Shown one piece after another: positions 7,463-43,479 of a stretch of DNA of 45,065 nucleotides. The position numbers were made by a program, and so were the translations under genes. The notes beneath the pieces were generated by a model. The model had not been told where the DNA came from. It saw only the letters and a program-made list of their open reading frames with translations, and made no database searches. The stretch comes from Minisyncoccota bacterium (GTDB lineage: Bacteria; Patescibacteriota; Minisyncoccia; UBA11713; 2-01-FULL-45-33): contig DATDXD010000009.1 in assembly GCA_036517275.1 (NCBI GenBank), forward strand, positions 1 to 45,065. The letters run 5' to 3'. How positions within the stretch are numbered: position 1 is the first letter of the stretch; every line of letters begins with the position of its first letter.

Positions 7463-7471
7463 AACCTTTTG

Positions 7472-7544
7472 AGCCGCCTCCGAGATTCGAACTCGGGACC
7501 TCTGCTTTACGAAAGCATTGCTCTACCAGCTGAGCTAAGGCGGC
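7472..7544 (-). tRNA. tRNA-Thr (anticodon CGU)
   Basis: Hand-folded cloverleaf. Acceptor GCCGCCT/AGGCGGC, D arm GCTC-AGCTGGTA-GAGC, anticodon arm ATGCT-TTCGTAA-AGCAG, T arm CCGAG-TTCGAAT-CTCGG, discriminator T. CCA is not encoded. Confidence 0.9.
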
Positions 7545-10795: not shown

Positions 10796-10861
10796 ATGAC
10801 ACTCCTTTTTTCAATTTATCTATCAGTTTTTATAGCACAACAAACAAAAAAAGTAAATTTG

Positions 10862-10932
10862 TGCGGAATACGGGAATCGAACCCGTGTCTCAACCTTGGG
10901 AAGGTCGCATATTGCCATTATACTAATTCCGC
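10862..10932 (-). tRNA. tRNA-Gly (anticodon CCC)
   Basis: Hand-folded. Acceptor GCGGAAT/ATTCCGC, anticodon arm CGACC-TTCCCAA-GGTTG, T arm ACGGG-TTCGATT-CCCGT, discriminator A. No encoded CCA. Confidence 0.9.
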
Positions 10933-11912: not shown

Positions 11913-13694
11913 CTAGTCCCTCTTTATCATCTTCAAATATACATCGTGGGGGATATCAACCGAGGCGTGTTCTTGCAGGCGTTTTTTGCCTTCTTTTTGT
12001 TTTTTCCAAAGTTTCATTTTTCTGGTTCTATCTCCTCCGTATAATTTAGCGGTAACATTTTTCCCAACTGCCGAAAGAGTCCGTGACGCAATAATTTTTC
12101 CTTCGGACCCCGCTTGAATTTTAAGCGCAAAAAGCTGTCTTGGTAGAATTTCATGAAGCTTATCAACTGTCCTTCTTGCTTCAAATTCAATTTCGTCCCG
12201 ACTAATCAATTTGGCGAACTGCAAAACTTCTTCCTCTGCCACAAACACGTCTAATTTTACAATGTCGGACGGTCTGTTTTCTTTAAATTCGTAACTCATG
12301 GAAGCGTATCCTTGTGTTACGCTTTTTAAATTGTCAAAAAAATTAGAAACCAGTTTCCGAAGCGGAATAACACAGCGTAACATCACTCTCGCACTAGGCA
12401 TTGTTTTTGTTTCCAAAAGTTCTCCTTTGTTTTTTTGTATCAAATCAAGCGTAGAACTAATATCTTCCGTCCTTTCTAAAATATGGACCGAAAACCAAGG
12501 TTCTTGAATTTCTTTTACCTTTCCACTTTCAGAAAACATTTCCGTGTTTCTAACGATTTTTCTTGTTCCGTCTCCAGATATAACTTCATATTCCACGCTC
12601 GGAGAAGCCACAACCACATTTATTCCAAATTCTCGCGTTATCCTTTCTATTGTTATATCCAAATGCAAAAGCCCCAAAAATCCCGCACGCAACGCTCTGC
12701 CAAAAATCCTTGAGCCCTCCACTTCAAAAGAAAGCGCCGCATCGTTAAGTTTTAATTTTAAAAGGGCGTCATAAAGTTTTGGAAAGTCATCAGAGTGTTC
12801 CGGAAAAATACTCGCCCACACCATTGGTTTTGGTTCTTCATAGCCAGAAAGTGGATTTTCTCCAATGGTATCGCCAACCCTCACCATGGACGGATCTTTT
12901 AAATTTGTCGCGATATATCCAATTTCACCGCTCAAAAGCGCTTCGGTCTTTAACAAGTCTGGTGAAAAAATGCCAACCTCAATTGGTTTAAATTTAATTT
13001 TTTTATGGAAAAGATTAACCGTATCCCCCGCCCTGATACCACCATCAAAAACACGCACATGGGCAAGCGCTCCTTTGTGCGAAGAATAAAATGAGTCGAA
13101 AATCAAAGCGCAGACTGACGCGGACTTTGTGCCGACAAACGCAGACTGTGGAGCGGGAATTTTTTCCACAATCGCATTAAGCAACATTTCCACTCCTTCT
13201 CCAGTTTTTCCAGAAACAAAAAAAATATCTTTTTTTTCAACATTCAAAAGTTCAATCAATTCTTCGGTGGATTCCTCAACGCGTGCGCCAGCTATATCAA
13301 TTTTGTTTACAACCGGAATAACCGTGAGTTTGTTTTTCCGCGCGAGTTCAAGGTTGGCAAGAGTTTGCGCCTGCACGCCTTTGGTGGCGTCAACAAGCAA
13401 AATGGCGCCCTCAACTGCCATAAGCGCGCGCGAAACTTCATACTGAAAATCTATGTGCCCGGGGGTATCAATTAAATTTAGTTGATAGTTTGTAGTCCCT
13501 AGTTTATAGTTCATTCGCACTGGTTGCATTTTTATTGTAATTCCGCGCTCTCGTTCCAAATCCATTTTATCCAAAAACTGTTCGCGCATTTTCCTTTTTT
13601 CAATCGTTCCGGTCAACTCCAACATTCTATCCGCCAACGTGGATTTCCCATGGTCAATATGCGCGATAATACAAAAATTTCTTATATTTTTCAT
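11913..13694 (-). CDS. lepA: Translation elongation factor 4 (LepA)
   Basis: 593 aa with GTPase motifs AHIDHGKST, DTPGH, NKID and a LepA-type C-terminal domain. Confidence 0.95.
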   Translation of the reverse strand: MKNIRNFCIIAHIDHGKSTLADRMLELTGTIEKRKMREQFLDKMDLERERGITIKMQPVRMNYKLGTTNYQLNLIDTPGHIDFQYEVSRALMAVEGAILLVDATKGVQAQTLANLELARKNKLTVIPVVNKIDIAGARVEESTEELIELLNVEKKDIFFVSGKTGEGVEMLLNAIVEKIPAPQSAFVGTKSASVCALIFDSFYSSHKGALAHVRVFDGGIRAGDTVNLFHKKIKFKPIEVGIFSPDLLKTEALLSGEIGYIATNLKDPSMVRVGDTIGENPLSGYEEPKPMVWASIFPEHSDDFPKLYDALLKLKLNDAALSFEVEGSRIFGRALRAGFLGLLHLDITIERITREFGINVVVASPSVEYEVISGDGTRKIVRNTEMFSESGKVKEIQEPWFSVHILERTEDISSTLDLIQKNKGELLETKTMPSARVMLRCVIPLRKLVSNFFDNLKSVTQGYASMSYEFKENRPSDIVKLDVFVAEEEVLQFAKLISRDEIEFEARRTVDKLHEILPRQLFALKIQAGSEGKIIASRTLSAVGKNVTAKLYGGDRTRKMKLWKKQKEGKKRLQEHASVDIPHDVYLKMIKRD

Positions 13695-15373: not shown

Positions 15374-17716
15374 TTATTGCCCCAAAAAAGAGCGAACGGA
15401 ACCGTCTTTGATTGGGGTTTCTTTTCGTTCATCCGGAGAGGGTCCTGGAGGAGATATGCCAAAAAGTGCGCTTTTTCCGGAATTGAGGTTAGACAAAATC
15501 TTTTCTATTTCTTCATTTCCTGGGTTTAAAGTGGAAATTTTTTCAAACTCCGCGATTGCGTCGTTTTTTCTTTTGGTCTTATCATAAATCAAACCCAAGA
15601 AATAACGAGCATTGGAATAATTAGGATTTATGGAAACCGTTCTCTTTAAAACAATTTCAGCGTCTTTAAGTCTGTTAGCTTTGTGATAAAGAAGTCCTAA
15701 TTGAAATAAGGTGCCAACATCGTTGGGAGAAATAAGCGCCGCCGCCTCACCTCCTTTTATTGCTCCTGCCGAATCTCCTTTTGCGTCAAAAATTTGCGCC
15801 AAAAGAAAATGCGCAGCGGCATAATCTGGTTTCAATTCAATTGCTTTTTCCAATTCTTTTTGTGCCATATCCAACAAAGAATTGTCTTTTTTATTTACAG
15901 CTTCCGAAATATAAACCAAAGCTTTGTCTCTAAAAAGAGAAGGGTTTTTGGGTGATCTTTTAAGTGCTTCGTCAAATTGAACAATTGCCGCGTCGCGCGA
16001 TCCTTCGGCATTTATTGAAACAAGAAAACGATAAATATTTCCCAAAGATCTGTAATTTTCAAAATCCATGGGCGATAGCCTAATTGCTTCCTGCGCGGTG
16101 GCTATTGACCCATCTAATGCGTCTTTGAATCTGGAATTCAAAAGTTCGGCGGGAGTCGCGCGGTCTTGCAAAACAAGTTGAGATTTAATGTTATAAATTT
16201 GTGAAAAAGAATTCATATAAACACTATTTCTGCTATCAACGCGCGAAGCTGAAACCAGCTTTTTTTCAGCAAGATCAAGATTGTTTTCCGAAAAAGCCTT
16301 GGCAGCTTGTGAAAAAAGAACCTGTCCAACATATTTTGAACCCGCCACGTAAAATCCGAAAATTCCGGCAATCATCAAAAGAACCATGGCCATGGCGGAA
16401 ACAAAACCCATAGAACCTTCTCCAAAAATCAAAATATCATAAACTTTAATCAAACCCCCAATACGCAAAGACGCCAAAAGAAAACCAATACTCAAAAATC
16501 CAAACACCAAAAGAGTATATCCAACGGGAAAAAACATCCACATTAAAACCGTATAACTAAACAAGAAAAACGAAGATAAAAACAAATTTTCTTTTTTTGC
16601 CACAACACTAACCAAATTAAGTCCCAGATACCACAAATAGGCGAGAAAACCCAAAAACAAAATCCAAGCAACCATGCCAACCTCCCCCAAAAGACTCAAA
16701 AGATACGATGAACCAGCATCAAATCTGGAAGCCCAAAAAACAGTGCGATTAACATCAGCCGGCTTATAAGAATCCCAAATATATCTAAAAGAAGTTGGTC
16801 CATTTCCAAAAATAATATTATCTTTTAGAGCGTCTTTTACAACGCGAAATGTCGCGCCATGCGAAACCCCAACCTCAACAGGAGAAGAAACACTAAGAAT
16901 ATTTGGAACAACGGATTTAAAAGTAAATCCAAAAACAGACAAAGATAAAAGCAATATACTCAAAAGGAGTGCGAAACCATCAACATGTCGCCTCCATATC
17001 GCATAACTTAAATAAACTAAGGCAAAAAAGCCCAAAAAGGCCCAAGAGAGCGGAAAACTAATTACAGCCATTATAAAAAGAAAGATCGCGAACAAAACAC
17101 CCAAAATCCATCTTTTTTTTCCGTCTGAACCTTGCGCCAAAAAAGCGTAAATCATCATCAAGAAAAAACCAGAAGCCAAACCAATGCTATTCCAAGAACC
17201 TATTGTATTAAAATTTTGATTAACAAAAACTCCACCCAAAAATTTTCCTAAACCAAAAATTGAAAAAATAATAAACAAGGCAAAAACAACGAAACCCGCT
17301 GAAAAAAAGAAAAATAATTTTTTAAGTGAAACTGTGTCTGAAAACAAAACAGCAATGAGCCATGAAAGCAAAAATAAAATAAAAACATTAAAAAAACTTG
17401 TGGTCTCCGCACCCACCCCAAAAATAGATTGGGGTCCGATACCTGAAAAAATTGACGATAAAAACCAAAACAAAAGAGTTGCGATAAAAAAAAGTAGAAC
17501 CCTGTGCGAAACCACGGTAATTTTCGCGCGTAAAATAGCATGGGTTAAATAAAAAATAAAAGAAGCGATGACAAGCGCGGAAACAAGCAAAACCTTATTA
17601 AATTCAACGGGCACCAAGGTTGTGGGTAAAAACCAAAAAGGCAACAAAAAAACAAGAAGTAAAATTGACCATTGAGCAAGTTTATAAAATCTATCTTCAT
17701 TATAAGTTGTATTCAT
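15374..17716 (-). CDS. Polytopic Wzy/O-antigen-ligase-like membrane protein with C-terminal TPR repeats
   Basis: About 780 aa. The N-terminal roughly 480 aa contain many TM segments. The C-terminal roughly 300 aa contain several TPR-like repeats (e.g. AAAHFLLAQIFDAKGDSAGAI, GTLFQLGLLYHKANRLKDAE, ARYFLGLIYDKTKRKNDAI). The start is set at Met28 of the track ORF, where TATAAT lies 7 nt upstream. Confidence 0.55.
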   Translation of the reverse strand: MNTTYNEDRFYKLAQWSILLLVFLLPFWFLPTTLVPVEFNKVLLVSALVIASFIFYLTHAILRAKITVVSHRVLLFFIATLLFWFLSSIFSGIGPQSIFGVGAETTSFFNVFILFLLSWLIAVLFSDTVSLKKLFFFFSAGFVVFALFIIFSIFGLGKFLGGVFVNQNFNTIGSWNSIGLASGFFLMMIYAFLAQGSDGKKRWILGVLFAIFLFIMAVISFPLSWAFLGFFALVYLSYAIWRRHVDGFALLLSILLLSLSVFGFTFKSVVPNILSVSSPVEVGVSHGATFRVVKDALKDNIIFGNGPTSFRYIWDSYKPADVNRTVFWASRFDAGSSYLLSLLGEVGMVAWILFLGFLAYLWYLGLNLVSVVAKKENLFLSSFFLFSYTVLMWMFFPVGYTLLVFGFLSIGFLLASLRIGGLIKVYDILIFGEGSMGFVSAMAMVLLMIAGIFGFYVAGSKYVGQVLFSQAAKAFSENNLDLAEKKLVSASRVDSRNSVYMNSFSQIYNIKSQLVLQDRATPAELLNSRFKDALDGSIATAQEAIRLSPMDFENYRSLGNIYRFLVSINAEGSRDAAIVQFDEALKRSPKNPSLFRDKALVYISEAVNKKDNSLLDMAQKELEKAIELKPDYAAAHFLLAQIFDAKGDSAGAIKGGEAAALISPNDVGTLFQLGLLYHKANRLKDAEIVLKRTVSINPNYSNARYFLGLIYDKTKRKNDAIAEFEKISTLNPGNEEIEKILSNLNSGKSALFGISPPGPSPDERKETPIKDGSVRSFLGQ

Positions 17717-17723
17717 AAAATTA

Positions 17724-17774
17724 ATTATAATCACATATTTATATTTTGCAATTATGGACAGGATTAAATACAAT
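17724..17774. promoter_or_regulatory. Back-to-back divergent promoters sharing one palindromic -35 hexamer
   Basis: Plus strand: TTGCAA (17746-17751), 17 nt, TACAAT (17769-17774), 8 nt, ATG 17783. Minus strand: the same TTGCAA, 16 nt, TATAAT (17729-17724), 7 nt, ATG 17716. Confidence 0.45.
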
Positions 17775-17782
17775 AAAAACAA

Positions 17783-18004
17783 ATGAAAAACAAGCAATAC
17801 CTAACCATAAAACAAGCGGCAAAAATAATAGGAGTAGCTGAACTTACGCTTAGAAACTGGGATAATTCCAAAAAATTTGAAGCCACTAGGCATCCTATAA
17901 ACAACTATAGGGTCTACGCTCTTGATCAAATAGATGAACTTATGAAAAAACTTGGCCGTAAAAGGGCTTCAAGAAAATTGGTAATCAAAGTGTTGGAGGA
18001 TTAA
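17783..18004 (+). CDS. Minimal MerR-family HTH DNA-binding protein
   Basis: 73 aa. LTIKQAAKIIGVAELTLRNWDNSKKFEATRHPINNYRVYALDQIDEL matches the MerR-type HTH/wing pattern (TLRxW...R...YRxY). There is no effector domain. Confidence 0.7.
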   Translation: MKNKQYLTIKQAAKIIGVAELTLRNWDNSKKFEATRHPINNYRVYALDQIDELMKKLGRKRASRKLVIKVLED

Positions 18005-18008
18005 ACAC

Positions 18009-18035
18009 AAACACCCCGATCAAATCGGAGTGTTT
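18009..18035. terminator. Hairpin between the convergent MerR-like gene and rnpB (possible bidirectional terminator)
   Basis: AAACACCCCGA-TCAAA-TCGGAGTGTTT. On the minus-strand RNA the single mismatch becomes a G-U pair. T-rich tracts follow on the plus strand. Confidence 0.45.
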
Positions 18036-18424
18036 GGTATCTTTGCTTATAAGCCGAATTCTGTCCCCGACCGAGGTCGGGGGATAGCCATCTGTCTGGG
18101 ATTGAGATTACTCTCAACCTCTAGCCCTCTTTCGAGGTTGCACCAGATAGGGTTTTCCTTTCCCGATGGTTACCCACCGGAACTGTGAGCTCTTACCTCA
18201 CTCTTTTCACCCTTGCTCTATCAACTTTTTTGGCTTTAGGCCAAAAATGATGACGTCAGCGGTATTGTCTCTGTGGCACTTTCCCGGTCACGGCGGCTGT
18301 TAGCCGCTACCTACTTCCTTTGACCAAGGTCAAAGGGGTGTTCGGACTTTCCTTTCCAAAAATATTGATATATCAAAATTTCAATATATTAATAATTCAG
18401 AACGGCTATCCAGCAAAGAACTAC
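18036..18424 (-). ncRNA. rnpB: RNase P RNA (bacterial type)
   Basis: The minus strand contains GGAAAGGAAAGTCCGAAC (P4 5' strand/CR-I), GGGTGAAAAGAGTGAGGTAAGAGCTCACAG (the GGUAAGAGC region) and ACAGAATTCGGCTTAT (P4 3' strand/CR-V). P1 pairs TCTTTGCT (18419-18412) with AGCAAAGA (18047-18040). P2 pairs GGATAGCC with GGCTATCC. Ends are uncertain by about 10 nt. Confidence 0.9.
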
Positions 18425-18455: not shown

Positions 18456-18543
18456 TCCCCCCTCATCCATAAAACACTCTTTCAAAAATCTTTAAACTAG
18501 ATTATTGTATAAGAAGCGTTATTTGACAACAGGTGACCAAACA

Positions 18544-19161
18544 ATGAAAATACTGATTTTAGCAATGTTTTTATTGCAAGAACCAGCCCTATTGCCGATA
18601 CAACAGGGTCCAAACAACCCTCCATCCGTAAATGGATGGAAAAAGGTGACCGAAATACATTTAGAATTGAAAAATGTTATAAAATCTGGAGAAAAAACAA
18701 TGACGGCAACGTCTATTGTTGGATCCTTCCGAGTGCTTCAAAATCCAGAATTGGAAAGCGAATTTGTTTTTATGGTTTCAAAATATCCTCCTTTGACATT
18801 TGTTCCGCAATTACTACAATCCGCGGAAAATACTCGTGACGAAATGGTGGTGGCAGAAAATTATTTTCAAAAAGTAAAACAAGAAAAACTAAAAGAAATG
18901 ATAAAATTTTCAGATACTATTTTACTTATAAAATGGCGGGAGTCAAAAGATCTAAGAACCGGAGAAACGATTCTTCTGGGTCCAATTGAAAACTGGCTTT
19001 TAAACCAGCAGGGTAAGTGGATATTTGAATCAACCAACGACAAAACAATAAAAAGAGAACTCGTTAGCGAAGAGGATTTGCTTCTGGGATTCAAATTTTC
19101 TCTTAAAGAAAATTATCATATTTTAAGGTTAAATATGAGCCATTTAGGAGGCGAAAAATGA
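18544..19161 (+). CDS. Exported hypothetical protein
   Basis: About 205 aa starting at MKILILAMFLLQEP (hydrophobic N-terminus), with SD AGGTGA 7 nt upstream. No recognisable domain. Its stop overlaps the next ATG (ATGA). Confidence 0.55.
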   Translation: MKILILAMFLLQEPALLPIQQGPNNPPSVNGWKKVTEIHLELKNVIKSGEKTMTATSIVGSFRVLQNPELESEFVFMVSKYPPLTFVPQLLQSAENTRDEMVVAENYFQKVKQEKLKEMIKFSDTILLIKWRESKDLRTGETILLGPIENWLLNQQGKWIFESTNDKTIKRELVSEEDLLLGFKFSLKENYHILRLNMSHLGGEK

Positions 19162-20288
19162 GACACCAAATAAAGGTTTTTATTTTAATTGTCTTTTTAC
19201 TAATTTTAAACGGATGCGCAAAAAAGGTTCTTATGAAGTATGCTGAAACCGACACAATAAAAATGTGTGAGGAAAACTTTTACTCAAAATTTTATATGCA
19301 TTTTTCGGAAAACGAAAAAAATGAATTTAAAGAAATAAAAACATTGGGAGAGTGCCAAATTTTTATAGATACATTTTGGCAAAAACGCGACACAGACCCA
19401 TCAACTTCTGAAAATGAATATAAAACATTGCTTGAGAAAAGAGTCGAAGACATAGAAAAAGAGGTTCTGTTTCAAAACATGGATACGGCTGGATTTGCGT
19501 TTAAAGCAAGTGATGGATTTAAAGGAGATCCGGCAAAAATTTATATGCTACACGGCGCTCCTGACTTCACAAAAAAAATTGAAGGGCACACTTTTGTTAA
19601 TTTAATGGTTTGGATTTATGGAGATGAAAACGGAAAACACAGGTATAGATTCCTTTTTTATCAAAAAAACTCAATCCAATATGTAATTTTTTGGCCACAA
19701 TGGAATGGCTGGATAGCTATAGAAGAAATATCAAAAGACTTTGTAGAATTAGATGCGGTCTATGAGGAATTAATACAAAATGAGGGTGAAATATTTCTTA
19801 TTTCCATGATTTCTTTTTCTGATAACTCAAATATAACACCAGATAAGGCATTAAAACCGCCAAAACCAGCTTCAGAAATAGCAAAAGAATTGGCTCCAAA
19901 AATAAAAACTGAAACCCCGAAAACAGAAGAAATTGTAGTTGCAAACAGTTTTAATTCAACAATTCCAGCCGAATTTTCTTACGAAATAACAAACGATAAA
20001 TTAATTTTAAAATTAGAAATAAAACACGAGGATCTTGATTGGATTTTAAAAAACAACGAACTTGTTTCGGAATTGTTTATAAAAACAATTGTTTGGGATA
20101 AAGATCAAAAACACGAAGAGGAACACAATATAAATATTGTGTCCACAAAACAAAAAATTACCGAAAAAAACTCATTTTTCTTTTTTGAATCAAAACCAAT
20201 AACACTCGAGAGTGAAATAGTAAAAGCAAGTATTTACATAAAAAATAATCAAAAATACAATTCTTGGATTGAAGAAATAAAGAGATAA
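19158..20288 (+). CDS. Lipoprotein with a GWxTD-like domain (signature degenerated to GFKGD)
   Basis: 376 aa. The signal ends in LNGC (lipobox-like). The pattern FWQKRDTDP...NEY...RV...F...GFKGDPAKIYMLHGAPD...VWIY fits the GWxTD-domain consensus as I remember it. SD AGGAGG lies 6 nt upstream. Confidence 0.5.
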   Translation: MRHQIKVFILIVFLLILNGCAKKVLMKYAETDTIKMCEENFYSKFYMHFSENEKNEFKEIKTLGECQIFIDTFWQKRDTDPSTSENEYKTLLEKRVEDIEKEVLFQNMDTAGFAFKASDGFKGDPAKIYMLHGAPDFTKKIEGHTFVNLMVWIYGDENGKHRYRFLFYQKNSIQYVIFWPQWNGWIAIEEISKDFVELDAVYEELIQNEGEIFLISMISFSDNSNITPDKALKPPKPASEIAKELAPKIKTETPKTEEIVVANSFNSTIPAEFSYEITNDKLILKLEIKHEDLDWILKNNELVSELFIKTIVWDKDQKHEEEHNINIVSTKQKITEKNSFFFFESKPITLESEIVKASIYIKNNQKYNSWIEEIKR

Positions 20289-20292
20289 ATAA

Positions 20293-20333
20293 AATCCATT
20301 TAGGTGTCCAACACCTAAATGGATTATTTTTTT
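20293..20333. terminator. Bidirectional intrinsic terminator between convergent genes
   Basis: 15-bp perfect stem AATCCATTTAGGTGT-CCA-ACACCTAAATGGATT, flanked by A-run and T-run (ATTTTTTT downstream on the plus strand). Confidence 0.75.
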
Positions 20334-23316
20334 AAAAATTCCAACCTTTTGATATGTAGAAATCTGGAACTCGTTTTTTGAATTTTTCCAACTCTCTCCA
20401 AGCAAATACATAATTGAGACCAGCGAACTGAGCGCCAATTCCCAATGACACACCCTTTTGAACTGGAAATTTTTCGTTGCTGAATTTCGCAAGAGCGTAA
20501 TCCGCGAACAAAAAACTTCTTATTGGTCCCAAGGCAATTCCACCGGGAAAAACAACGGCATCAATAAAAGGAAAACGCAATTCCGCACTTCCATAAACAA
20601 CTTGATTTCCAGCAAGATATCCAAATGGGTAAGTTTTGAGAGTGGCATCTCCACCCATAATAATATAATCGCCCATCGCACGTGAACTTTGAAGACCACG
20701 CACATTAAACGCCAATAAACTTCCTTCACTTAACCTTTTATATCTCCTGTAGTCAAAAGAAAAGGTTGTATAACCCTTGGTATTTTTAAATCCCAAAGGA
20801 GGGGCAACTTCAAAGTTAAATCTTGCGGCATTACCATGAATTGGTCCTTGGGTAGCGTAAGAATACAAAACAGTATCTCTTACAAAAGAAGTGGAAAAAC
20901 TAGCATTGAAACCTTTAGAATTTTTGAAAAAGTTATAAAACTGTTTATCTGTGTCACTAAAATATTCTGGAGATTCCTCAATAACAGAATCGTCAATAAA
21001 TACTTCAAAATTTCTCTTTTCAAAACTAAACCCTGTTTCAACTCTTGTAAATTTACCGAAGAGATAACTCCCAAAAACATCCCCGCCAATTTCGTCTCCA
21101 ACAGTATAATTGAACAATGTTTGATTGGCATAACCTTTTATCGGATCCCATTTTAGATATTGAAGTGGTAACTTGTGGTTATAAAAATCAAAACCCCAAT
21201 TCAAACGCTTTTCGCGATTCAAATAACTAAAATCTATCAATCTAAAATAACTTCCATTAAACGCAAATCCAATTTGAAAAAGATTGTTTTCTTTAATATC
21301 CGAAATTCCTTTCAATCCATAACCAAACATTCCCCAATAATTACTTAACCCCAAACTTACTTCTCCTTCGGACATTTTCCATCTTTTAGGAGGAACAGTT
21401 TTATTTTTTATTTGATTCTCATCAATAACACTAGAAAATAAATTAAATGGTCTCCAAGCGTAAACCATGTTTTCCGCTCTTTTTTCTTCAGTATAAGAAT
21501 ACAGGGGTTCCTTAAATTTCAAACTATAAATTTCAAAATTTTTGTATATTTGATTTCTAAACTGGTCATACGGCCAAAAAACTATCGCCGCGATTTCTCC
21601 AGAAGAATCAGGAATTGGTTTTGGCAAAAAAGTTCCTCCAAAAAATTCCGTCCATTGCTTTACTTCTTTTGTTTCAATATCAATAGTAACAATATTCCAA
21701 GCGCTATTTCTTTCATCAGAAGTAAAAACAATAGTATGATCATCCAAAAAATACGGAGAATCTTCATTGTGCCTATTAAATGTCAGCTGACGCTTTTTCA
21801 TTGTTTCCAAATCAAGCAAAAATAACTTTTGAAAATCTCCATCAAACGCAACATATGCGATAATTTTTCCGTTTAGTGATATTGCAGGGGCAGTGTCAAA
21901 ATTTGAATCTTGAGTTAAATTTTTAAATTCCTGTGTCAAAAAATCAAATTCATAAATATCGCGGGTTGCGTTTTGAGACGCTGAAAAATAAATTTTCTTT
22001 CCGTCCGGACTAAAAGTGGGGGAAAAAGATTGGTCATATGGAATTTTAATTTTGGTAAACTTATTTTCTTTGTCCGCATCAACCAAAAATAATTCGTGAT
22101 CTCTTCCTTTTCTAGCAAAGAACGCGATTTGTTGACTAACGGGCGACCACGCAATATCCCCACCATTAAACGGCCAAGTATTTCCGCGCTGGGAAATAAC
22201 ATACTCAAAATCGTTTGGTGGAAAATGTGAAGTCAAATTTTTTATTTTTGAATCAGTACCACCAGACAAAGCATAAGTTATAACCGAAACACCATTTTTT
22301 TGAGGAGACAGAACCGCAACATCTTTTCCATCTGAAGAAAAGGTAAAAGACAAAATTCCGAATGGTAATTTACTATTGGTTATGTTTGTTCCTGAAAAAC
22401 TTTTTTCATTTTCGTAAGGCTTCTGGCTTAATCTCATTTCTTGGGCGTATTTGTTGCTCCAAAAATCTCTGTGTTTTCTATCAAACAATTCTGGATTTTT
22501 TTGCGGATCCGGAATATCTCCATTGGTTAGTTCTTCAATCAGCTTTCCAAGATTCTTTCCGGAACTTTTTATACCTTTTGTCTTAAACTCAACTCCAACA
22601 TGATATTTTTCTTCCAAAAATTCAAAAACCATTGCCCATTGCCCATAAGGGTCTGCTTGATCAGACATAAATCTTTCCCAAGTCGGCAAAAACAACTCTG
22701 GATTTCCAGCATCGGTGCGTTGATTAATTCGTCTTAAATCATCACGAGTATGCGGGACATAAAGAGAGGCGATAAATTCAGCTCCACCCTCTATAAATCC
22801 ATTGGGAAACGGTAATGTGCCAGTAGTTTTATTTAAAAAACCTCTTTTGAGAATACTGAACTGAAAACTATGCACAAGTTCGTGGACAACCATTGATTTC
22901 ATGAGTGGAAGAGAAAAATCGGCTTTTAGCACCATTCTATTTTTTTCGTTTTCAACAAAAGCGCCGACTCCTTCCGGTAAAAATTCCATAGTTATGTTTG
23001 TACTTTCAAACTCACTATGGGTTTTGTACATCATGATCGGAATTTTTTCTTTTATTTCAAGGTTAAAAAGAATACTCAAAGATAAATGAGCACTTTCCAA
23101 AATAGACAAAGTTTCTTCAAAAAATTTTTTTTGGGAAAAATCGTTCAAATCAAGAGAATGCCAAACTTCAAAATGCTCACTTTGGTAAAAATTCTGCAAA
23201 GATTTTTCATATACAACCTTGTTTTTTCCAAAAGGACCAAATTCATCCGTTTGCGCCAAAGCCTCAATCGGCAACAATACCAAAACAACAATCATCAAAA
23301 ACAACAGTTTCCTCAT
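20332..23316 (-). CDS. Large exported multidomain protein: MA-clan metallopeptidase-like domain + PD40/TolB-like beta-propeller + C-terminal Omp85-type beta-barrel
   Basis: 994 aa. Signal peptide ends ...IEALA/QT. HELVH followed by FIEGGAEF (HExxH...EGxAE gluzincin pattern). PD40-like repeats FSSDGKDVA, WSPVSQQIAF, FSPDGKKIYFSA, ISLNGKIIAYVA. The C-terminal roughly 350 aa show alternating beta-strand patterns with GGDATLKTYPFGYLAGNQVVYGSAELRFPF...FLFADYA...SLGIGAQF and a terminal ...KGWNF. SD GAGGTGA precedes the start. Confidence 0.6.
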   Translation of the reverse strand: MRKLLFLMIVVLVLLPIEALAQTDEFGPFGKNKVVYEKSLQNFYQSEHFEVWHSLDLNDFSQKKFFEETLSILESAHLSLSILFNLEIKEKIPIMMYKTHSEFESTNITMEFLPEGVGAFVENEKNRMVLKADFSLPLMKSMVVHELVHSFQFSILKRGFLNKTTGTLPFPNGFIEGGAEFIASLYVPHTRDDLRRINQRTDAGNPELFLPTWERFMSDQADPYGQWAMVFEFLEEKYHVGVEFKTKGIKSSGKNLGKLIEELTNGDIPDPQKNPELFDRKHRDFWSNKYAQEMRLSQKPYENEKSFSGTNITNSKLPFGILSFTFSSDGKDVAVLSPQKNGVSVITYALSGGTDSKIKNLTSHFPPNDFEYVISQRGNTWPFNGGDIAWSPVSQQIAFFARKGRDHELFLVDADKENKFTKIKIPYDQSFSPTFSPDGKKIYFSASQNATRDIYEFDFLTQEFKNLTQDSNFDTAPAISLNGKIIAYVAFDGDFQKLFLLDLETMKKRQLTFNRHNEDSPYFLDDHTIVFTSDERNSAWNIVTIDIETKEVKQWTEFFGGTFLPKPIPDSSGEIAAIVFWPYDQFRNQIYKNFEIYSLKFKEPLYSYTEEKRAENMVYAWRPFNLFSSVIDENQIKNKTVPPKRWKMSEGEVSLGLSNYWGMFGYGLKGISDIKENNLFQIGFAFNGSYFRLIDFSYLNREKRLNWGFDFYNHKLPLQYLKWDPIKGYANQTLFNYTVGDEIGGDVFGSYLFGKFTRVETGFSFEKRNFEVFIDDSVIEESPEYFSDTDKQFYNFFKNSKGFNASFSTSFVRDTVLYSYATQGPIHGNAARFNFEVAPPLGFKNTKGYTTFSFDYRRYKRLSEGSLLAFNVRGLQSSRAMGDYIIMGGDATLKTYPFGYLAGNQVVYGSAELRFPFIDAVVFPGGIALGPIRSFLFADYALAKFSNEKFPVQKGVSLGIGAQFAGLNYVFAWRELEKFKKRVPDFYISKGWNF

Positions 23317-33652: not shown

Positions 33653-33922
33653 TTATTCATTTTCTAATTCTACGAATTCTTCGATAATCAAAGTGTTGTT
33701 TGTTGATACCAATAAAAATACTTTCCCGCCATCTTTTTTTGTTATTGTGGCAGATCTGGAAGAGATTTGGTACTCAATGTCTAAAATTTGTGCTGATTGA
33801 ACATCTTCCCACTTCCTTAGGACATGTCCGATTTCAGATTCACAAAGCACAACATTTACTCTTTTCATAAACACCTTAAAATAATCTACGGGCAGATTAG
33901 CAAACATTGAAAACAAAATCAA
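33653..33922 (-). CDS. Hypothetical small protein
   Basis: 89-aa track ORF. The true start may be the internal Met at 33868 (MKRVNVVL...), which is preceded by AAGGTG. No domain recognised. Confidence 0.35.
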   Translation of the reverse strand: MILFSMFANLPVDYFKVFMKRVNVVLCESEIGHVLRKWEDVQSAQILDIEYQISSRSATITKKDGGKVFLLVSTNNTLIIEEFVELENE

Positions 33923-35865
33923 GATACTGTATATTTACTTTGCTGGAACGAAAAACTGAAAAACTTTTGATAGTGGCAGTTACCCCCTCGTTTTTGGAAA
34001 AAGGGGTTTTTCCATATTCCACTGAAATTGCAAAATTGCGTAGCGCAAACCCTTGGTACCAAAGAAATACTTATGTTGTAGAAAAAAATCAGCAAATTCA
34101 ACTTTCACATTTTCTGCGCAAACTCGCCGAATTGGGATATAGCAAGGTTTGGGAAACTTCGCGCAAAGGAGAATTTTCACAAAGAGGAGGAGTGGTGCGC
34201 GTGTTTCCAATTAATGCGGAACAAATTTACACAGTTGAGTTTTCTGGAAATTTGGTGGAAACAATAAACACAGAGGAAATAAAGTCCAAGATCAAGGGGC
34301 AAGAAAAAAAAATTTTTCGTTCCAACCTCCAACTTCCAACCTCCAACTTCCAAATTGGCGATTATGTCGTTCATATTGACCACGGCATTGGAATTTTTGC
34401 TGGTGAAGATCCGCCAACTGGCGGAGATGATTTTGTTCTTGAATACGCAGCGGGAGACAAATTATTTGTCCCAAAAACAGAAACACAACGAATAACGCCT
34501 TATTTAGGACTCAAAACTCCGCGGATATCGCGCTTGGGAACTCCAATTTGGTCCATCACAAAAAAGAAAGCCAAAGAAGATATTGTGGAATTTGCCAAAG
34601 AACTTCTCAAAATTTTAGCTAAAAGAAAATTGGTAAAACGTCCACCTTACCAAACATTTCCAGAGCAAGAAGATGAGTTTGTGGCAAATTTTGAACACAT
34701 TGATACACCCGACCAGCAAAAAGCCATTCTGGAAATTTTTTCCGACATGGAAAGATCTGTTCCAATGGACAGGGTTTTAACAGGCGATGTGGGATTTGGA
34801 AAAACCGAGGTTGCTCTGCGTGCCGCGTTTAAAACAATTTTAAATAACAAACAGGTAGCGCTTATTGCGCCAACCACAATTTTGGCAGACCAGCATTTTG
34901 AGGTCGCCAAAAAACGTTTAGAACAATTTGGGGTAAGCATTGCTAAAGCAAGCCGGCTTGAAGAAAATTATGAAATTAAAAAAATTTTTGAAAAAGCCAA
35001 AAATGGAAGTCTGGATATTTTGATTGGAACACACAAACTTTTGGGAAAAGGTTTGGAGTTTAAAAATTTGGGACTTTTGATAATAGATGAGGAACAAAAA
35101 TTTGGGGTCGCCCACAAAGAACATTTTAAAAAAATAAATCCGGTAATTGATATTTTGACGCTTTCAGCCACCCCAATCCCGCGCACATTGAGCCAAGCAC
35201 TTTCAGGAATTACAAACATTTCACGCATAGAAACCCCGCCTTTGGGAAAAATGACAGTACAAACATATGTTCTGCCAAAAAATAAAAAAATTATAAAAGA
35301 CGCGATAAAATACGAACTTTCCCGAAACGGACAAATTTATTTTTTGGCAAACAGAATTCACAAGATGCCCCAAATATTAGAAGAAATAAAGTCGCTCAAA
35401 ACAAAAGTGAAAGTCGGAATACTGCACGGCAGGATGGGAGAAAAAAATATTATAAAAACCATGCATGACTTCAGAGAAAAAAAATTCAACCTTTTGCTTT
35501 CAACCACAATTATAGAAAATGGTTTGGACATTTCCGAAGCAAATACTTTGATTGTTGAGGACGCCACAAAACTCGGACTCTCGCAGGCGCACCAGCTTAG
35601 AGGAAGAATCGGCAGAGGAACAAAAGAAGCGCACGCGTATTTTTTGTATCCAACACAACACCTCAAAGAAAAAGCCGCTCTGCGCCTTGAAGCGCTGGAA
35701 AGATATTCTTGGTTGGGAGCAGGAATTGAAATAGCAAAACAAGATCTTGAAATACGCGGAGCGGGCAACATTTTGGGTAAAGCTCAAAGCGGAGTCGCAT
35801 ACAAAGTCGGACTCAATCTATACTTCCAACTTTTGGAAGAAACAATTAAAGAGTTGGGGTCTTAG
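33907..35865 (+). CDS. mfd: Transcription-repair coupling factor (Mfd), short form
   Basis: 652 aa. UvrB-like N-terminal piece (GEFSQRGGVVRVFP). CarD/TRCF RNAP-interaction domain (IGDYVVHIDHGIGIF...GDKLFVP). SF2 translocase motifs GDVGFGKTEVA, IIDEEQKFG, LSATPIPRT and the TRG-like LSQAHQLRGRIGRG. The protein ends shortly after the translocase. The TTG start is uncertain. Confidence 0.85.
   Translation: MKTKSRYCIFTLLERKTEKLLIVAVTPSFLEKGVFPYSTEIAKLRSANPWYQRNTYVVEKNQQIQLSHFLRKLAELGYSKVWETSRKGEFSQRGGVVRVFPINAEQIYTVEFSGNLVETINTEEIKSKIKGQEKKIFRSNLQLPTSNFQIGDYVVHIDHGIGIFAGEDPPTGGDDFVLEYAAGDKLFVPKTETQRITPYLGLKTPRISRLGTPIWSITKKKAKEDIVEFAKELLKILAKRKLVKRPPYQTFPEQEDEFVANFEHIDTPDQQKAILEIFSDMERSVPMDRVLTGDVGFGKTEVALRAAFKTILNNKQVALIAPTTILADQHFEVAKKRLEQFGVSIAKASRLEENYEIKKIFEKAKNGSLDILIGTHKLLGKGLEFKNLGLLIIDEEQKFGVAHKEHFKKINPVIDILTLSATPIPRTLSQALSGITNISRIETPPLGKMTVQTYVLPKNKKIIKDAIKYELSRNGQIYFLANRIHKMPQILEEIKSLKTKVKVGILHGRMGEKNIIKTMHDFREKKFNLLLSTTIIENGLDISEANTLIVEDATKLGLSQAHQLRGRIGRGTKEAHAYFLYPTQHLKEKAALRLEALERYSWLGAGIEIAKQDLEIRGAGNILGKAQSGVAYKVGLNLYFQLLEETIKELGS
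34304..34355 (+). repeat. Low-complexity slippery tract inside mfd: A9T5 followed by 5 tandem heptamers TCCAACY
   Basis: A9 at 34304-34312, T5 at 34313-34317, then TCCAACC TCCAACT TCCAACC TCCAACT TCCAAAT at 34321-34355, encoding SNLQLPTSNFQ in the linker before the CarD-like domain. Confidence 0.9.
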
Positions 35866-38316: not shown

Positions 38317-40785
38317 ATGGCTAAAAACAAGGAGACTGAAAAAGAAAATATATCAGAAGTTGGTACTCTGGAACCACGAGAGATTGTTGAGGAAATGAAG
38401 GAATCATATTTGGATTACGCGATGTCAGTAATTGTGGCGCGCGCTCTTCCTGATGTCAGAGACGGCTTAAAACCTGTGCACCGCAGGGTGCTTTTTGCAA
38501 TGCATGAAATGGGACTTTCGCACCAATCCAAAACCAAAAAATCCGCGACAGTTGTGGGAGAAGTTATGGGCAAGTACCACCCACACGGCGACACCGCCAT
38601 TTACGATACCCTTGTCAGAATGGCTCAAGATTTTTCTCTGCGTTATCCGCTTGTTCAAGGACAAGGAAACTTCGGCTCAATAGATGGCGATTCCGCCGCC
38701 GCAATGCGATACACCGAGGCAAAAATGTCCGGCATTGCTTCTGAAATGCTGCGCGATATTGAAAAAGAAACAGTCAATTTTGTTCCAAATTACGATGGCA
38801 CCAAACAAGAACCGGCTGTTTTACCTTCGGCAATTCCAAATCTTCTTTTAAACGGTTCAATAGGCATAGCAGTTGGTATGGCAACAAATATACCTCCGCA
38901 TAACCTTACCGAGGTTGTAAGCGCCACGCTTCATCTTTTGCACAAACCAAAAACAACAGTAGAAGATTTAACTGAATTTGTAACTGGACCGGATTTTCCA
39001 ACGGGAGGAATGATTTTTAACAAAAAGGAAATTTTGGAAGCGTATACCACAGGACGAGGAGGGGTAGTAAACAGGGGTGAAGCGGAAATTATAGAACGCA
39101 AAAACAGCGAATGGCAGATTATTATCACCTCGATTCCCTATCAAGTAAATAAATCGGAAATGATTAAAAAAATGGCCGACTTGGTGCATGAAAAAAAGTT
39201 AGAAGGAATAAGAGATATTAGAGACGAATCCGACAAAGACGGTCTGCGCATAGCAATTGACCTAAAAAGAGATTCCTATCCTCAAAAAATACTAAATAGT
39301 TTATACAAACACACGGAACTTGAACGAACTTTCCATTTCAACATGATCGCGCTTGTGGACGGAATCCAACCGCAAACATTATCACTTAAAGGATTTTTGG
39401 AAGAATTTATAAAACACCGCAGAGTAATAATTGAACGCCGTGCGCGATTTGATTTGATGCGCGCACAAGAAAGAGAACATATACTTTTGGGTCTCAAAAA
39501 GGCGCTGGACAAAATTGACGCGGTAATACAAACAATCAAAAAATCAGAAAGCAAAGAAGACGCGCATAAAAATTTGATAAAAAAGTTTGACCTTTCGGAC
39601 AAACAAGCCACAGCAATTTTGGAAATGAGACTTTCAACTCTTGCCGGTCTTGAAAGGCAAAAAATAGAAGATGAGCTCAAAGAAAAACAGCGTTTAATCC
39701 GAGAACTTAAAGCCCTTTTGGGAGACCCTAAAAAAATAGACGAGGTTTTGGAAAAAGAACTCATAGAAGTGAAAGAAAAATATGGTGACCAGAGAAAAAC
39801 AAAAGTAATTGCCGGAGCCGCCAAAATAATTTCAACGGAGGACTTGGTGCCGGAAGAAGAAACAATTTTAATACTCACTCAAGGGGGATACGTAAAAAGA
39901 GTAAAACCCGCTGAATACAAAATCCAAAAACGCGGAGGCAAAGGAGTTATTGGTGTTACCACAAAAGACGAGGATGTGCCTTTGGAATTTATTTCTGGAA
40001 GCACTCACGCGGGACTTTTATTCTTTACCAACAGCGGAAAAGTTTTTGAAACCAAAATGTACGAACTTCCGGAAGGTACTAGACAATCCAAAGGAAAATC
40101 AATTGCCAATTTCCTTTCTTTGTCTGCGGATGAAAAAGTAACCGCAGTGCTTGCCGTACCCAAAGGAAACAAGGGAATAAAAAACTTTGTAATACTCGCA
40201 ACCCAACAGGGCATTATTAAAAAAGTGGCAGCGGAAGATTTTGCGGATGTCAGAAGATCCGGAATCAAAGCCATCAATCTTCAAAAAGGCGATGGTTTGT
40301 ATTGGGCAAAAATTATATCTACCGGTGAAGAAATTTTAATCTCTACAAGTAGGGGGCAGGCCATAAGATTTAAAGAAAAAGACGCAAGGGCAATGGGCAG
40401 AACGGCAAAAGGGGTACGTGCTATAAGACTTAAAAAAGGCGATGAAGTTGTTGGCATGGACGTTATCCCACAGGAAGCCAAAAAATTTGAAGTGCTTGCG
40501 GTTTCAGAATTGGGATATGGCAAAAAAACGTCTCTTACCCAATACAAAGTTCAGCGTAGAAGCGGTTCTGGAGTTAAAACAGTAAAAGTAACTCCGAAAA
40601 CTGGAAATTTAATTTTGGCTCAAATAGTTTGGGAGGACAAAGAGGAACTAATTGCGATTTCCAATAACGGACAAGTAATCCGCACAGCGCTTTCGCAAAT
40701 TCCATCACTTTCGCGCGCCACACAAGGGGTGCGAATAATGCGCCTAGAATCTGGGGACAAAGTAGCTTCGGTGGTGCTATTATAG
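38317..40785 (+). CDS. gyrA: DNA gyrase subunit A
   Basis: 822 aa with motifs [19 protein letters not shown], catalytic Tyr in AAMRYTEA, and a C-terminal beta-pinwheel with repeated G.G...L motifs. Confidence 0.97.
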
Positions 40786-41296: not shown

Positions 41297-42607
41297 GTGT
41301 TGGAAGCTATGAATATCAACAAACTGCAAATAATATTAATCGGGGGGGCGGTGTTTTTAACGCTTATTGTTGTTTTAATTTTTTCCGGAGTTCTTCCGGG
41401 ACTAAAAGACAATACGCAAGAATCCGCAACACTTGAACTTTGGGGTTTTGACGACGATAGGGTTTGGGATCAAACGCTTCGCGCCCACAAAGATGAAAAT
41501 CCAAAAATAACCGTAAACTACAAAAGAAAAACTTTAGAAAACTTTGAGACGGAACTTTTAAACGCGATTGCCCGCGGAGATTCTCCGGATATTTTTATAC
41601 TTCCGTCCGAATATTTAAAAAAATTTGAGGACAAAATTTCTTCCGCTCCCCCAATTTTGATTACCGAGCGAGAAGTAGAACAACAATTTGTGGAATCAGC
41701 AAAACAGTTTCTAACGCCCCAAAAAAAAGTTTTGGGAATACCTTTATACGCGGATCCTTTGGTCCTTTACTGGAATAAAGACATATTTACACGAGAAAGC
41801 ATCGCTTTACCACCAAAAACTTGGGACGAGTTTCTCCAAATATCCCAAAAAATAACCAAAAAAGACAATGCCGGAAATATTACAGTTTCAGGAGCCGCGC
41901 TTGGGAGGGCAAAAAATATAAAAAACGCCCCAGCAATTTTAACGGCGCTTTTTTTGCAGTCGGGAGAAAAAATTATAAATGAAGAAAATGAAGTTGTGTT
42001 GGGTGAAAGCGTGCGCACCGGAGAAGTCAGCTTGCGCCCCGCGGAATCCGCTTTGAGATTTTTTAGCGAGTTTGCCGACTCCGGCAAAACATCGCATAGC
42101 TGGGTGTCTTCCCTACCAGAAGCGGAAGATTTGTTTCTTTCCGGAAAATTGGGAATGTATATTGGATTTTCTTCAGAATACGAGCAGATGCGCAAAAAAA
42201 ACCCACACACGGCAATAGGCATGGCGCATCTACCTAACCTTAATTCGGAAAAAGCAACATACGGATCAGTTTTCGCGCCAGTAGTTCCTTTGGCTTCGCA
42301 AAACTACACGGCATCGTGGCAATTTATAAAATTTTTAACTTCAAAGGAAATATCCAAACTTTTTTCTGACTCCCAAATGAGCGCTTCCCCCAGAAGAGAC
42401 TTATTTTCTTCGTATCAAAGTGATTCTGTTCGTTCGGTTTTCGCAGAAAGCAACTTATCGCTTAAAAGTTGGCCAAATCCAAATCCAACAAAAACAAACG
42501 CAATATTCTCTGAACTTATGGAAGATATGGCTCGGAAAATTGACACAATGCGGGCGCTTCTTACAAAAGCTGCGAATAAAATTAGAGAAATAAACAAAAC
42601 AAGGTAA
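41297..42607 (+). CDS. Membrane-anchored extracellular solute-binding protein (ABC SBP family 1-like), orphan
   Basis: 436 aa with an N-terminal TM anchor instead of a lipobox. The pattern LELWGFDDD...SPDIFILPSEYL...YWNKDIF...PKTWDEF is typical of sugar-type SBPs. No permease or ATPase is adjacent. The real start may be the ATG at 41309. Confidence 0.65.
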   Translation: MLEAMNINKLQIILIGGAVFLTLIVVLIFSGVLPGLKDNTQESATLELWGFDDDRVWDQTLRAHKDENPKITVNYKRKTLENFETELLNAIARGDSPDIFILPSEYLKKFEDKISSAPPILITEREVEQQFVESAKQFLTPQKKVLGIPLYADPLVLYWNKDIFTRESIALPPKTWDEFLQISQKITKKDNAGNITVSGAALGRAKNIKNAPAILTALFLQSGEKIINEENEVVLGESVRTGEVSLRPAESALRFFSEFADSGKTSHSWVSSLPEAEDLFLSGKLGMYIGFSSEYEQMRKKNPHTAIGMAHLPNLNSEKATYGSVFAPVVPLASQNYTASWQFIKFLTSKEISKLFSDSQMSASPRRDLFSSYQSDSVRSVFAESNLSLKSWPNPNPTKTNAIFSELMEDMARKIDTMRALLTKAANKIREINKTR

Positions 42608-43479
42608 TGCAAGAATCTTTAGCGCAACTTGTCACTTGCGGAATTGGTGAAGGCACAACATTTAAAGCCTGCACAATTTGCGATATTTGGGTTTTGGCAG
42701 ATAAAATCGTGAACTTTGTCTGGTTTTTGGCAACTCCAATTTTAATAATTATACTTATTGTTGGCGGATTTATTTATTTAACTTCTGGCGGAAATCCAAA
42801 AAAAACCGAGCAAGCAAAATCACTCCTTACTTCCGCGATTGTTGGAATTGTAATTTCCCTCGCTGCGTTTTTGATTGTGGATACGATTTTAAAAACATTG
42901 GTTCGTCAAGACTTCACATGGCCTTCGTGGAATACAATAACCACAAGTAGCTGCCCCAAGCCTCTTGAACCCACACCAGTTGATTTGTCTAAATTACCGA
43001 AGCCGATAATTTTAGGAAACGCCGGAACACTCGCATCAGAAGAAGAAGCCAGAAACGCACTTGAAGGATTTTCAGGAGTCGGAGAACGGGTAAGTATCAA
43101 TAAAAGACCTTGCGCTTGCTCCTTGCGAAACGATCCGCGATGCGCCGACTGCACAAATACCGCCGGTCTTCCCGCAAGCACGATTAACTATCTTCGTTTA
43201 CTTCAAGAATACTGTGCTTCGGGACAAATTTTAAACTGCAAATTTGTTCTTTCCGGCGGAACAGAATCTCATCTTCATTCCGAAAACACAAGACACGCCC
43301 CGGGAAATACAGTAGTTGATGTGGTGCCAAACACGCAAACCCAAGCAATTTATCAAGCGCTTATTAGTGCGGCGCAAAATATAACCACAACCGCAAGATG
43401 CGAAAACAGAGACAGTGAGACAATATCAACTTGTGCCGTACCTTCAACAAACCATATTCATTTTGAATTTAGACGGTGA
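42607..43479 (+). CDS. VirB2/TrbC-like (T4SS-pilin-like) membrane protein fused to a Cys-rich C-terminal domain with an LAS/M15-like zinc-peptidase motif
   Basis: 290 aa. The N-terminal roughly 100 aa have two TM helices flanking YLTSGGNPKKTEQAKS, like the three downstream paralogs. The C-terminal roughly 160 aa have about 9 Cys, RHAPGNTVVD (H-x7-D) and NHIHFEF (HxH). The start overlaps the SBP stop (TAATG). Confidence 0.5.
   Translation: MQESLAQLVTCGIGEGTTFKACTICDIWVLADKIVNFVWFLATPILIIILIVGGFIYLTSGGNPKKTEQAKSLLTSAIVGIVISLAAFLIVDTILKTLVRQDFTWPSWNTITTSSCPKPLEPTPVDLSKLPKPIILGNAGTLASEEEARNALEGFSGVGERVSINKRPCACSLRNDPRCADCTNTAGLPASTINYLRLLQEYCASGQILNCKFVLSGGTESHLHSENTRHAPGNTVVDVVPNTQTQAIYQALISAAQNITTTARCENRDSETISTCAVPSTNHIHFEFRR

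Follow-up and report, generated by a model that had tools for sequence, protein, structure and literature searches.

A Patescibacterial Clade of WD40-like Omp85 Proteins with a Predicted Gluzincin Peptidase, a TolB-type Propeller and Two Secreted Partners

The window analysed here, a 45,065-nucleotide stretch of the Minisyncoccota contig DATDXD010000009.1, carries on its minus strand an intact open reading frame (ORF) of 994 codons with an ATG start (20332–23316), whose product is read from the ORF list, its homologues and an AlphaFold2 model as a signal peptide followed by a gluzincin peptidase, a β-propeller and an Omp85 barrel. This gene, referred to below as the target, converges with two genes on the plus strand, which encode an orphan secreted protein (18505–19161) and a GWxTD-domain lipoprotein (19158–20288). 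A terminator scan located a hairpin (20293–20325) exactly between the two convergent stop codons of the target and GWxTD genes, and its perfect 15-bp stem and T-runs on both strands make it look like a shared bidirectional intrinsic terminator. Within the target, a Sec signal peptide is read from the sequence at residues 1–22 (MRKLLFLMIVVLVLLPIEALA, followed by QT; 23251–23316), with low model confidence at residues 11–29. The gluzincin zinc-peptidase domain takes up residues 30–300 (22417–23229), the TolB/PD40-type six-bladed propeller residues 305–610 (21487–22404), a linker residues 611–650 (21367–21486) and the 16-stranded Omp85-type barrel residues 651–994 (20335–21366), which end in the aromatic KGWNF. 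An initial annotation made from the DNA sequence had proposed the same series of parts, including signal peptide cleavage at ALA/QT, which was indeed found in the context …PIEALA before QT. Every motif it quoted was recovered, to an extent far beyond chance.

The Omp85 and peptidase domains were brought out only by a family profile and by structure, not by the single sequence. A Pfam scan of the target alone gave PD40 and a sub-threshold DUF6782 match, and no Omp85 or Peptidase_MA match; a PDB sequence search with the same single sequence returned only TolB, and one with its C-terminal 362 aa returned no match. The family profile, built from an alignment of 52 homologues (A1) with identities down to 27%, matched PDB entries for all three domains. 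AlphaFold2 run on this alignment yielded a full-length model with a predicted local distance difference test score (pLDDT) of 86.4 and a predicted template modelling score (pTM) of 0.85.

The peptidase domain carries HELVHSF at residues 145–151 and FIEGGAEF at residues 173–180, with Glu176 falling 27 residues after His149. Residues H145, E146, H149, E176 and Y224 show no variation across the 52 aligned sequences, which bears out the earlier reading of these motifs as a gluzincin pattern and settles the conservation check on HExxH and the downstream Glu that had been proposed with it. The gluzincin catalytic set is therefore complete and invariant, which argues, at the level of sequence, for an active enzyme. 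The N-terminal domain of the model is α/β, with the HELVH zinc-binding and catalytic motif (residues 145–149; 22870–22884) in helix 136–156 and Glu176, the predicted third zinc ligand within EGGAEF (residues 175–180; 22777–22794), in helix 172–186. A separate AlphaFold2 model of residues 30–300 reached a pLDDT of 87.8, and all 50 of the Foldseek matches listed for it were zinc peptidases of the gluzincin families M9, M1 or M61. The top matches were ColH and ColT, peptidase domains of M9 collagenases (template modelling (TM) scores 0.58–0.60), followed by M1 enzymes (IRAP, APN, LTA4H and ColAP), Vibrio collagenases and M61. The family profile matched the active-site region of the M1 aminopeptidase 3cia (2.4e-3) over residues 133–249, and Pfam and NCBIfam gave weak matches in the peptidase region to DUF6782, a metallopeptidase family that stayed below threshold, and to Hvo_1808. 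The region upstream of HExxH reads PEGVGAFVEN, so that the GxMEN exopeptidase motif of M1 is not present in its canonical form, and the target gave no M1 Pfam match. On the strength of the model, the domain is predicted to fold as a gluzincin of clan MA(E) with a thermolysin-like catalytic fold.

PD40 repeats were detected in the target by Pfam (E=5.6e-13), and the blade motif quoted in the initial annotation, FSPDGKKIYFSA, lies at residues 435–446. DSSP assigned 24 strands of the model to six four-stranded blades between residues 305 and 610, thus confirming the PD40/TolB-like blades that had been suggested. TolB was matched by the family profile against the PDB (1e-33) and by Foldseek with the full model (1e-10). 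The NCBIfam match to TIGR02800 (1.5e-23) is partial, being limited to propeller positions 156–317, and scores 83 bits against a cut-off of 343; at a score so far below the cut-off, the target is not a full-length TolB equivalog, which comprises an N-terminal α/β domain together with the propeller. Tricorn_N and Tricorn_2nd domains are precomputed in homologues.

The C-terminal part of the model contains 16 long strands between residues 652 and 988, and Foldseek matched it to BamA and TamA barrels with TM scores of 0.59–0.63, the upper value being reached against barrel-only chains. The family profile matched Fusobacterium BamA 9ccg (9e-10) and BamA 8xnb (6.5e-5) over residues 814–989. The Omp85-like barrel with an aromatic end that had been proposed is thus recovered next to a metalloprotease fold around HELVH, with the barrel judged from its strands and Foldseek matches rather than from closure geometry. 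The family consensus carries the Omp85 signatures GGxxxLRGYxY, AELRFP and RGxLFxDxG, and the target itself has GSAELRFPF, FLFADYA, SLGIGAQF and the terminal KGWNF. The strand-13 motif FxDxG reads FADYA in the target, with Gly replaced by Ala, and the following E-x-R-x-P strand is kept. E912, R914, P916 and R933 are invariant across the alignment, and 51 of 51 sequences end in F, W or Y. Loop 6 spans residues 878–904 (20605–20685), where the alignment shows that the Omp85 hallmark (V/L)RG(Y/F) reads LKTY. No POTRA domain was matched by Pfam, and the linker shows only two short helices by DSSP and no POTRA fold; the target is therefore not a BamA orthologue, in line with what had been concluded earlier. 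The accepted Omp85 subfamilies noNterm, Metallo and WD40-like also lack POTRA domains (Heinz and Lithgow 2014, PMC4104836).

The last of these, the WD40-like Omp85 or WD40-Omp85 subfamily, was defined in the same study, whose Table S3 reports for each member Phyre2 matches to a BamA/TamA barrel (~100), to TolB (~100) and to a “best aminopeptidase hit” (98.7–99.4), the last being 1z5h, 4kxd, 4fgm, 3qnf or 4ar1 (PMC4104836). Two of these, 4ar1 (ColH) and 4fgm, are also among the Foldseek matches of the target N-terminal domain. The main text of that study treats the propeller only and never the peptidase, and among the later papers searched, only one repeated the term “WD40-like Omp85”. By its domain make-up, as compared with Table S3, the target belongs to this subfamily.

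A word-indexed search found at least 818 homologous proteins, and the family is present in at least 577 species-representative genomes, mostly of Acidobacteriota (Vicinamibacterales, Thermoanaerobaculia and Aminicenantes). At 50% identity and E≤1e-30 it forms 202 clusters, most of whose members are 930–1100 aa long and match end to end. The 2014 members, going by their accessions, presumably come from diderm phyla, examples being Rhodothermus, Caldithrix, Myxococcales, Chlorobi and Cloacimonas. The initial annotation had called the architecture unusual and had allowed that its novelty would go if the combination proved to be common; since it was catalogued in 2014 and is widespread, that part of the claim falls. 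The three-part architecture nevertheless has no name in databases, where its members appear as “hypothetical” or “PD40 domain-containing”. What is new is a clade of the subfamily that is specific to the candidate phyla radiation (CPR), with partner genes of its own; the fusion itself was already known.

The contig that carries the target is patescibacterial, as judged from the protein sequences on either side of the gene, and its organism is related to Ca. Yanofskybacteria. GyrA (38317–40785) is 75–87% identical to proteins from Ca. Giovannonibacteria, Parcubacteria and Patescibacteria metagenome-assembled genomes (MAGs). On the other side of the target, LepA (11913–13694) is closest to proteins of Patescibacteria, Giovannonibacteria, Niyogibacteria and Paceibacterota, with identities of up to 86% among all matches and of 75% for the best match that is named as Patescibacteria. 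A clade-specific scan recovered the target gene from about 19 CPR genomes at species level, contributed by no fewer than six projects and including more than ten Ca. Yanofskybacteria MAGs with the NCBI lineage Patescibacteria group; Parcubacteria group. The best GyrA match (87%) comes from a MAG, H51-bin155_1, that also encodes a target homologue with 65% identity. In a simple neighbour-joining tree rooted at the midpoint, all CPR-type sequences group together in a single deep clade, which branches as the sister of the Acidobacteriota-type clade rather than from inside it; on the basis of this tree, a recent transfer from sampled Acidobacteriota was rejected. The labels “Saccharibacteria”, “Bifidobacteriaceae” and “Eubacteriales” on binchicken MAGs were set aside as unreliable: among loci L010–L080 and L085–L160, many binchicken records bear labels at odds with their content, with Bifidobacteriaceae or Eubacteriales given to Acidobacteriota-like loci and Saccharibacteria or Gammaproteobacteria to Paceibacteria-like ones. 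One homologue, P0010, is a mosaic whose peptidase domain is 28–38% identical to that of the target and whose last 150 residues, at the end of the barrel, are 84–92% identical; this suggests either that domains have been exchanged by recombination inside the clade or that the 5-kb contig is chimeric.

In the CPR-type clade, the barrel, peptidase and propeller have mean pairwise identities of 0.42, 0.44 and 0.47, respectively. E912, R914, P916, R933, D939 (27 of 27 sequences) and the C-terminal aromatic residue are fully conserved. A strand-parity proxy for barrel hydropathy gave out-face/in-face values of 0.67/−0.87 for the CPR-type sequences versus 1.08/−0.88 for those of Acidobacteriota, so that hydrophobic and polar faces still alternate. 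By these sequence comparisons, the barrel of the CPR-type clade is not decaying. The loop-6 motif is strictly kept in the Acidobacteriota-type clade (R in 24 of 24 sequences, G in 20 of 24 and Y/F in 24 of 24) and relaxed in the CPR-type clade (R in 21 of 27, G in 13 and Y in 16), with the remaining barrel signature invariant. In cells lacking a classical outer membrane, the function of loop 6 may be under weaker constraint.

The two genes facing the target belong to a module that recurs across the CPR-type loci, in the order target, orphan secreted protein (~215 aa) and GWxTD lipoprotein (~430 aa), with overlapping stop and start codons. The GWxTD gene adjoins the target in 19 of 19 CPR-type loci and the orphan gene in 18 of 19; only in the window and its nearest relative is the partner pair inverted, and in the window it is convergent with the target. 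The GWxTD protein of the window has 376 aa, a lipobox LNGC and a TIGR04514 match of 1.3e-9. Its PDB search gave no match, a large-database search found only 16 close CPR relatives, and no paper mentioning the GWxTD domain turned up in the literature searched. The orphan protein (~205–218 aa), whose gene overlaps the GWxTD start by 4 bp, had no Pfam or PDB relatives, even with a profile of 14 sequences. The TTG start listed for the orphan gene is probably too far upstream, and MKILILAMFLL, 13 codons in, resembles a signal peptide. Among non-CPR homologues, the nearest seven lack both partners. At L001, L161 and L162, the three loci inspected for wider context, the module is embedded between AhpC and DnaG-RpoD, with a PurF-like gene in two of the three. 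Across 80 loci, no universal conserved neighbour was found; the Acidobacteriota neighbourhoods are lineage-specific and feature DnaA/DnaN, tetratricopeptide repeat (TPR) lipoproteins, a thioesterase and a TPR-aspartyl protease. A link between the module and the “three conserved gene arrays with signal peptides” reported for Ca. Yanofskybacteria/UBA5738 (Kuroda 2022) was not made, as that text is without gene identities and the table entries listed include no PD40, WD40 or TolB.

The other genes of the window are housekeeping in character, with FtsZ, FtsA, NrdJ, HisS, MurJ, RF, FtsEX, S1 and signal peptidase accompanying the features described in this paragraph. Directly upstream of the partner genes is a bacterial class A RNase P RNA (18034–18421, minus strand; 181.8 bits), and tRNA-Thr(CGT) (7471–7544) and tRNA-Gly(CCC) (10861–10932) are on the same strand. 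Between MurJ and the RNase P RNA, an 807-aa protein (15374–17797, minus strand) has C-terminal TPR repeats and an unannotated N-terminal part of ~580 aa. An Mfd-like protein of 652 aa (33907–35865, plus strand) contains UvrB-interaction, CarD/TRCF-RID, DEAD and Helicase_C domains, and the next ORF is on the opposite strand; Mfd is expected to have ~1100 aa, well above the length found here. A 290-aa protein (42607–43479, plus strand) that adjoins a solute-binding protein has a pilin domain (PF18895) of type IV secretion systems. In parasitic Paceibacteria, pilins of this kind are reported among the signal-peptide proteins with high expression (PMC10936435).

On balance, we lean towards reading the target as a Sec-exported zinc endopeptidase that is anchored by its Omp85 barrel, uses its propeller as a gate or capture platform and, by default topology, faces inward. 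The signal peptide would take the chain across the cytoplasmic membrane, and the C-terminal 16-stranded barrel, as predicted, would then fold into a lipid layer and anchor the protein. The propeller beside the catalytic domain could gate or capture substrates so that only unfolded chains or peptides are admitted, by analogy with other enzymes. Propeller gating is known from the tricorn protease, DPP-IV and prolyl oligopeptidase. Captured chains would be cleaved with His145, His149 and Glu176 binding zinc, Glu146 acting as general base and Tyr224 stabilizing the transition state. In its host, the target would work with its two co-inherited secreted partners, the orphan ~215-aa protein and the GWxTD lipoprotein. 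Solved Omp85 proteins have their N-terminal domains on the periplasmic face, and an inward-facing protease is therefore at least as likely as one on the surface; of the self-anchored surface protease envisaged initially, the protease and the barrel stand but the surface exposure is unproven. A protease and propeller facing the periplasm or wall zone might serve envelope protein turnover and quality control, or the trimming of imported peptides.

Several observations weigh against this reading. The target protein falls below every Pfam peptidase threshold, including that of Peptidase_MA_2 (PF13485), which some homologues carry, and it has no match at E≤1 to PF01103 (Bac_surface_Ag), which is precomputed for several homologues. 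Its loop-6 hallmark is degenerate, its substrate, its topology and the roles of its partners are all inferred, and the WD40-like Omp85 subfamily as a whole is experimentally uncharacterized. A further point concerns the host lineage. BamA-family barrels are a hallmark for predicting an outer membrane, and CPR are placed with Chloroflexi and Dormibacteraeota in a monoderm clade in which the outer membrane was lost (PMC10160955; bioRxiv 10.1101/2021.05.31.446380). No BamA was found in taxa without a Gram-negative envelope, and the supplements of that study mention no candidate divisions (Heinz and Lithgow 2014, PMC4104836). Since CPR are described as being without an outer membrane, they offer no defined membrane for the barrel. 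Neither the 45-kb window nor the flanks of the CPR loci showed any outer-membrane biogenesis genes (BamA/BamD, Lpt, Lol, Lpx, TamB or OmpM), and our limited literature searches found no report of Omp85 or BamA in CPR or Parcubacteria.

If the barrel instead exported its own passenger in the manner of PlpD (type Vd secretion), the protease and propeller would reach the surface and attack host or environmental proteins, for example, in the case of a parasitic CPR cell, a host S-layer or sheath; in essence, this is the self-anchored surface protease of the initial annotation. The arrangement of an N-terminal passenger and a C-terminal 16-stranded Omp85 barrel does match PlpD (PMC11116518; PMC4104836), the catalytic domain is structurally best matched by secreted M9 collagenases, and Ca. 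Yanofskybacteria are episymbiotic parasites that deform the Methanothrix wall at the attachment site (PMC9600506). However, PlpD is described with at least one POTRA domain (PMC11116518), which the target lacks, and there is no known precedent for a folded propeller plus protease of ~600 residues passing through an Omp85 barrel. Moreover, the annotation tables of the cultured Yanofskyibacterium show no PD40, WD40 or TolB among the entries listed, and most carriers of the family are free-living Acidobacteriota. We therefore regard self-export as unlikely.

The same parts could also be arranged as a BamA-like assembly and quality-control device in one chain, in which the barrel would act as insertase, the propeller as a BamB-like scaffold and the peptidase as a BepA-like degrader of stalled substrates; the target would then be the sole Omp85 protein of these CPR and would point to a cryptic layer resembling an outer membrane. 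BepA is a zinc metalloprotease that docks on the β-barrel assembly machinery (BAM) for quality control of outer-membrane proteins (PMC13478230; PMC8423444), and the conservation of the Omp85 signature residues and of the terminal aromatic would fit such a role. This proposal is nonetheless quite improbable, because the target has no POTRA domain to handle substrates, no other outer-membrane gene occurs in the 45-kb window or the CPR-locus flanks, the literature puts CPR in a monoderm clade, and the loop-6 RG(Y/F) motif is relaxed in the CPR-type clade. This motif is functionally important in BamA and FhaC.

We give very little credence to a third proposal, in which the barrel would be delivered into the membrane of another cell as an episymbiont anchor or pore, with the protease and propeller acting at the interface between the cells. 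CPR are obligate episymbionts (PMC9600506), the module is CPR-specific and includes two secreted partners, and Omp85 barrels can enter plain bilayers in vitro: spontaneous folding into liposomes is described for Acetonema BamA and SonA, and the authors propose self-insertion into a spore membrane derived from the inner membrane, a precedent that bears more generally on which membrane holds the barrel (PMC13018214). The proposal is nevertheless pure inference without precedent, the family is abundant in free-living Acidobacteriota, and hosts of Yanofskybacteria have been reported only among archaea, which possess no outer membrane (PMC9600506). Finally, an artefactual CPR assignment, whether through contamination, a chimeric contig or a decaying, functionless relic of a recent Acidobacteriota transfer, gains some colour from the many unreliable MAG labels (Acidobacteriota-like loci labelled “Bifidobacteriaceae” or “Eubacteriales”) but is largely refuted and has a negligible probability, given genes closest to Patescibacteria on both sides of the target in one 45-kb contig, a synteny shared by some 19 genomes at species level that stem from six or more projects, the deep branching of the CPR-type clade as a sister and not a subgroup of the Acidobacteriota clade, and equal conservation of the three domains and of the catalytic residues.

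With the barrel-anchored, inward-facing endopeptidase as our preferred reading, the interest of the target stems from its host lineage and not from the domain fusion, as CPR are assigned to a clade whose outer membrane is said to have been lost. We suggest, tentatively and at somewhat less than even chances, that Ca. Yanofskybacteria and their relatives, a family-level lineage, have long kept a functional, membrane-inserting Omp85 barrel that shares its operon with two secreted proteins specific to the lineage. If true, either these CPR have an unrecognized outer lipid layer, perhaps a remnant of a diderm ancestor, or a single-chain Omp85 barrel can work in a non-classical membrane, be it that of its own cell or of a host. 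The rule that Omp85 barrels mark diderms would be broken, and a molecular handle would be gained on the diderm-to-monoderm transition in the CPR/Chloroflexi clade. A conserved barrel with operon partners in about 19 patescibacterial species offers a specific protein with which to probe the envelope of uncultured episymbionts and the loss of the outer membrane. More widely, the intact gluzincin site in all aligned members makes the WD40-like Omp85 proteins, which are abundant in soil Acidobacteriota, a testable class of barrel-anchored envelope proteases.

Each part of the target has a counterpart in a known system. With gluzincins such as the M9 catalytic domain, M1 enzymes and PF13485 proteins it shares HExxH, a downstream Glu in a second helix, a conserved Tyr and a thermolysin-like fold, whereas its peptidase domain has only ~270 residues and no clear GxMEN (GVGAFVEN). 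M1 enzymes have an N-terminal β-domain and a C-terminal ERAP-like domain, and M9 enzymes an activator domain, none of which accompanies the domain of the target. The six-bladed PD40 propeller and the Tricorn_N/Tricorn_2nd matches in homologues recall TolB and propeller-gated proteases of the tricorn type; the target differs from TolB in lacking its N-terminal domain and from tricorn in showing none of its catalytic domains. Like BepA and BamB on the BAM complex, it brings a zinc metalloprotease and a β-propeller to an Omp85 barrel, here fused in one chain. BepA, in contrast, is a separate M48 polypeptide with TPR repeats, and the target has an M9/M1-like gluzincin; BamB is also a separate polypeptide, an eight-bladed lipoprotein, and the propeller of the target is six-bladed and of TolB type.

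Like BamA and TamA, the target has a barrel of 16 strands that ends in an aromatic residue, and the consensus of its family (LRGY..AELRFP..RGxLFxDxG) carries their loop-6 and strand-13 signatures. It differs from them in having a protease and propeller at its N-terminus in place of POTRA domains and in reading LKTY and FADYA at the two signatures. PlpD, a patatin-Omp85 protein, resembles it in placing an enzyme domain N-terminal to an Omp85 barrel; in PlpD, however, a POTRA domain is present and the passenger is a lipase that ends up on the surface, whereas the target has no POTRA domain and an N-terminal part of ~600 residues with a rigid propeller. The closest counterparts are the WD40-like Omp85 proteins (PMC4104836), which have the same three parts, and from these the clade of the target differs in residing in Patescibacteria, in being accompanied by a two-gene partner module of its own and in its relaxed loop 6.

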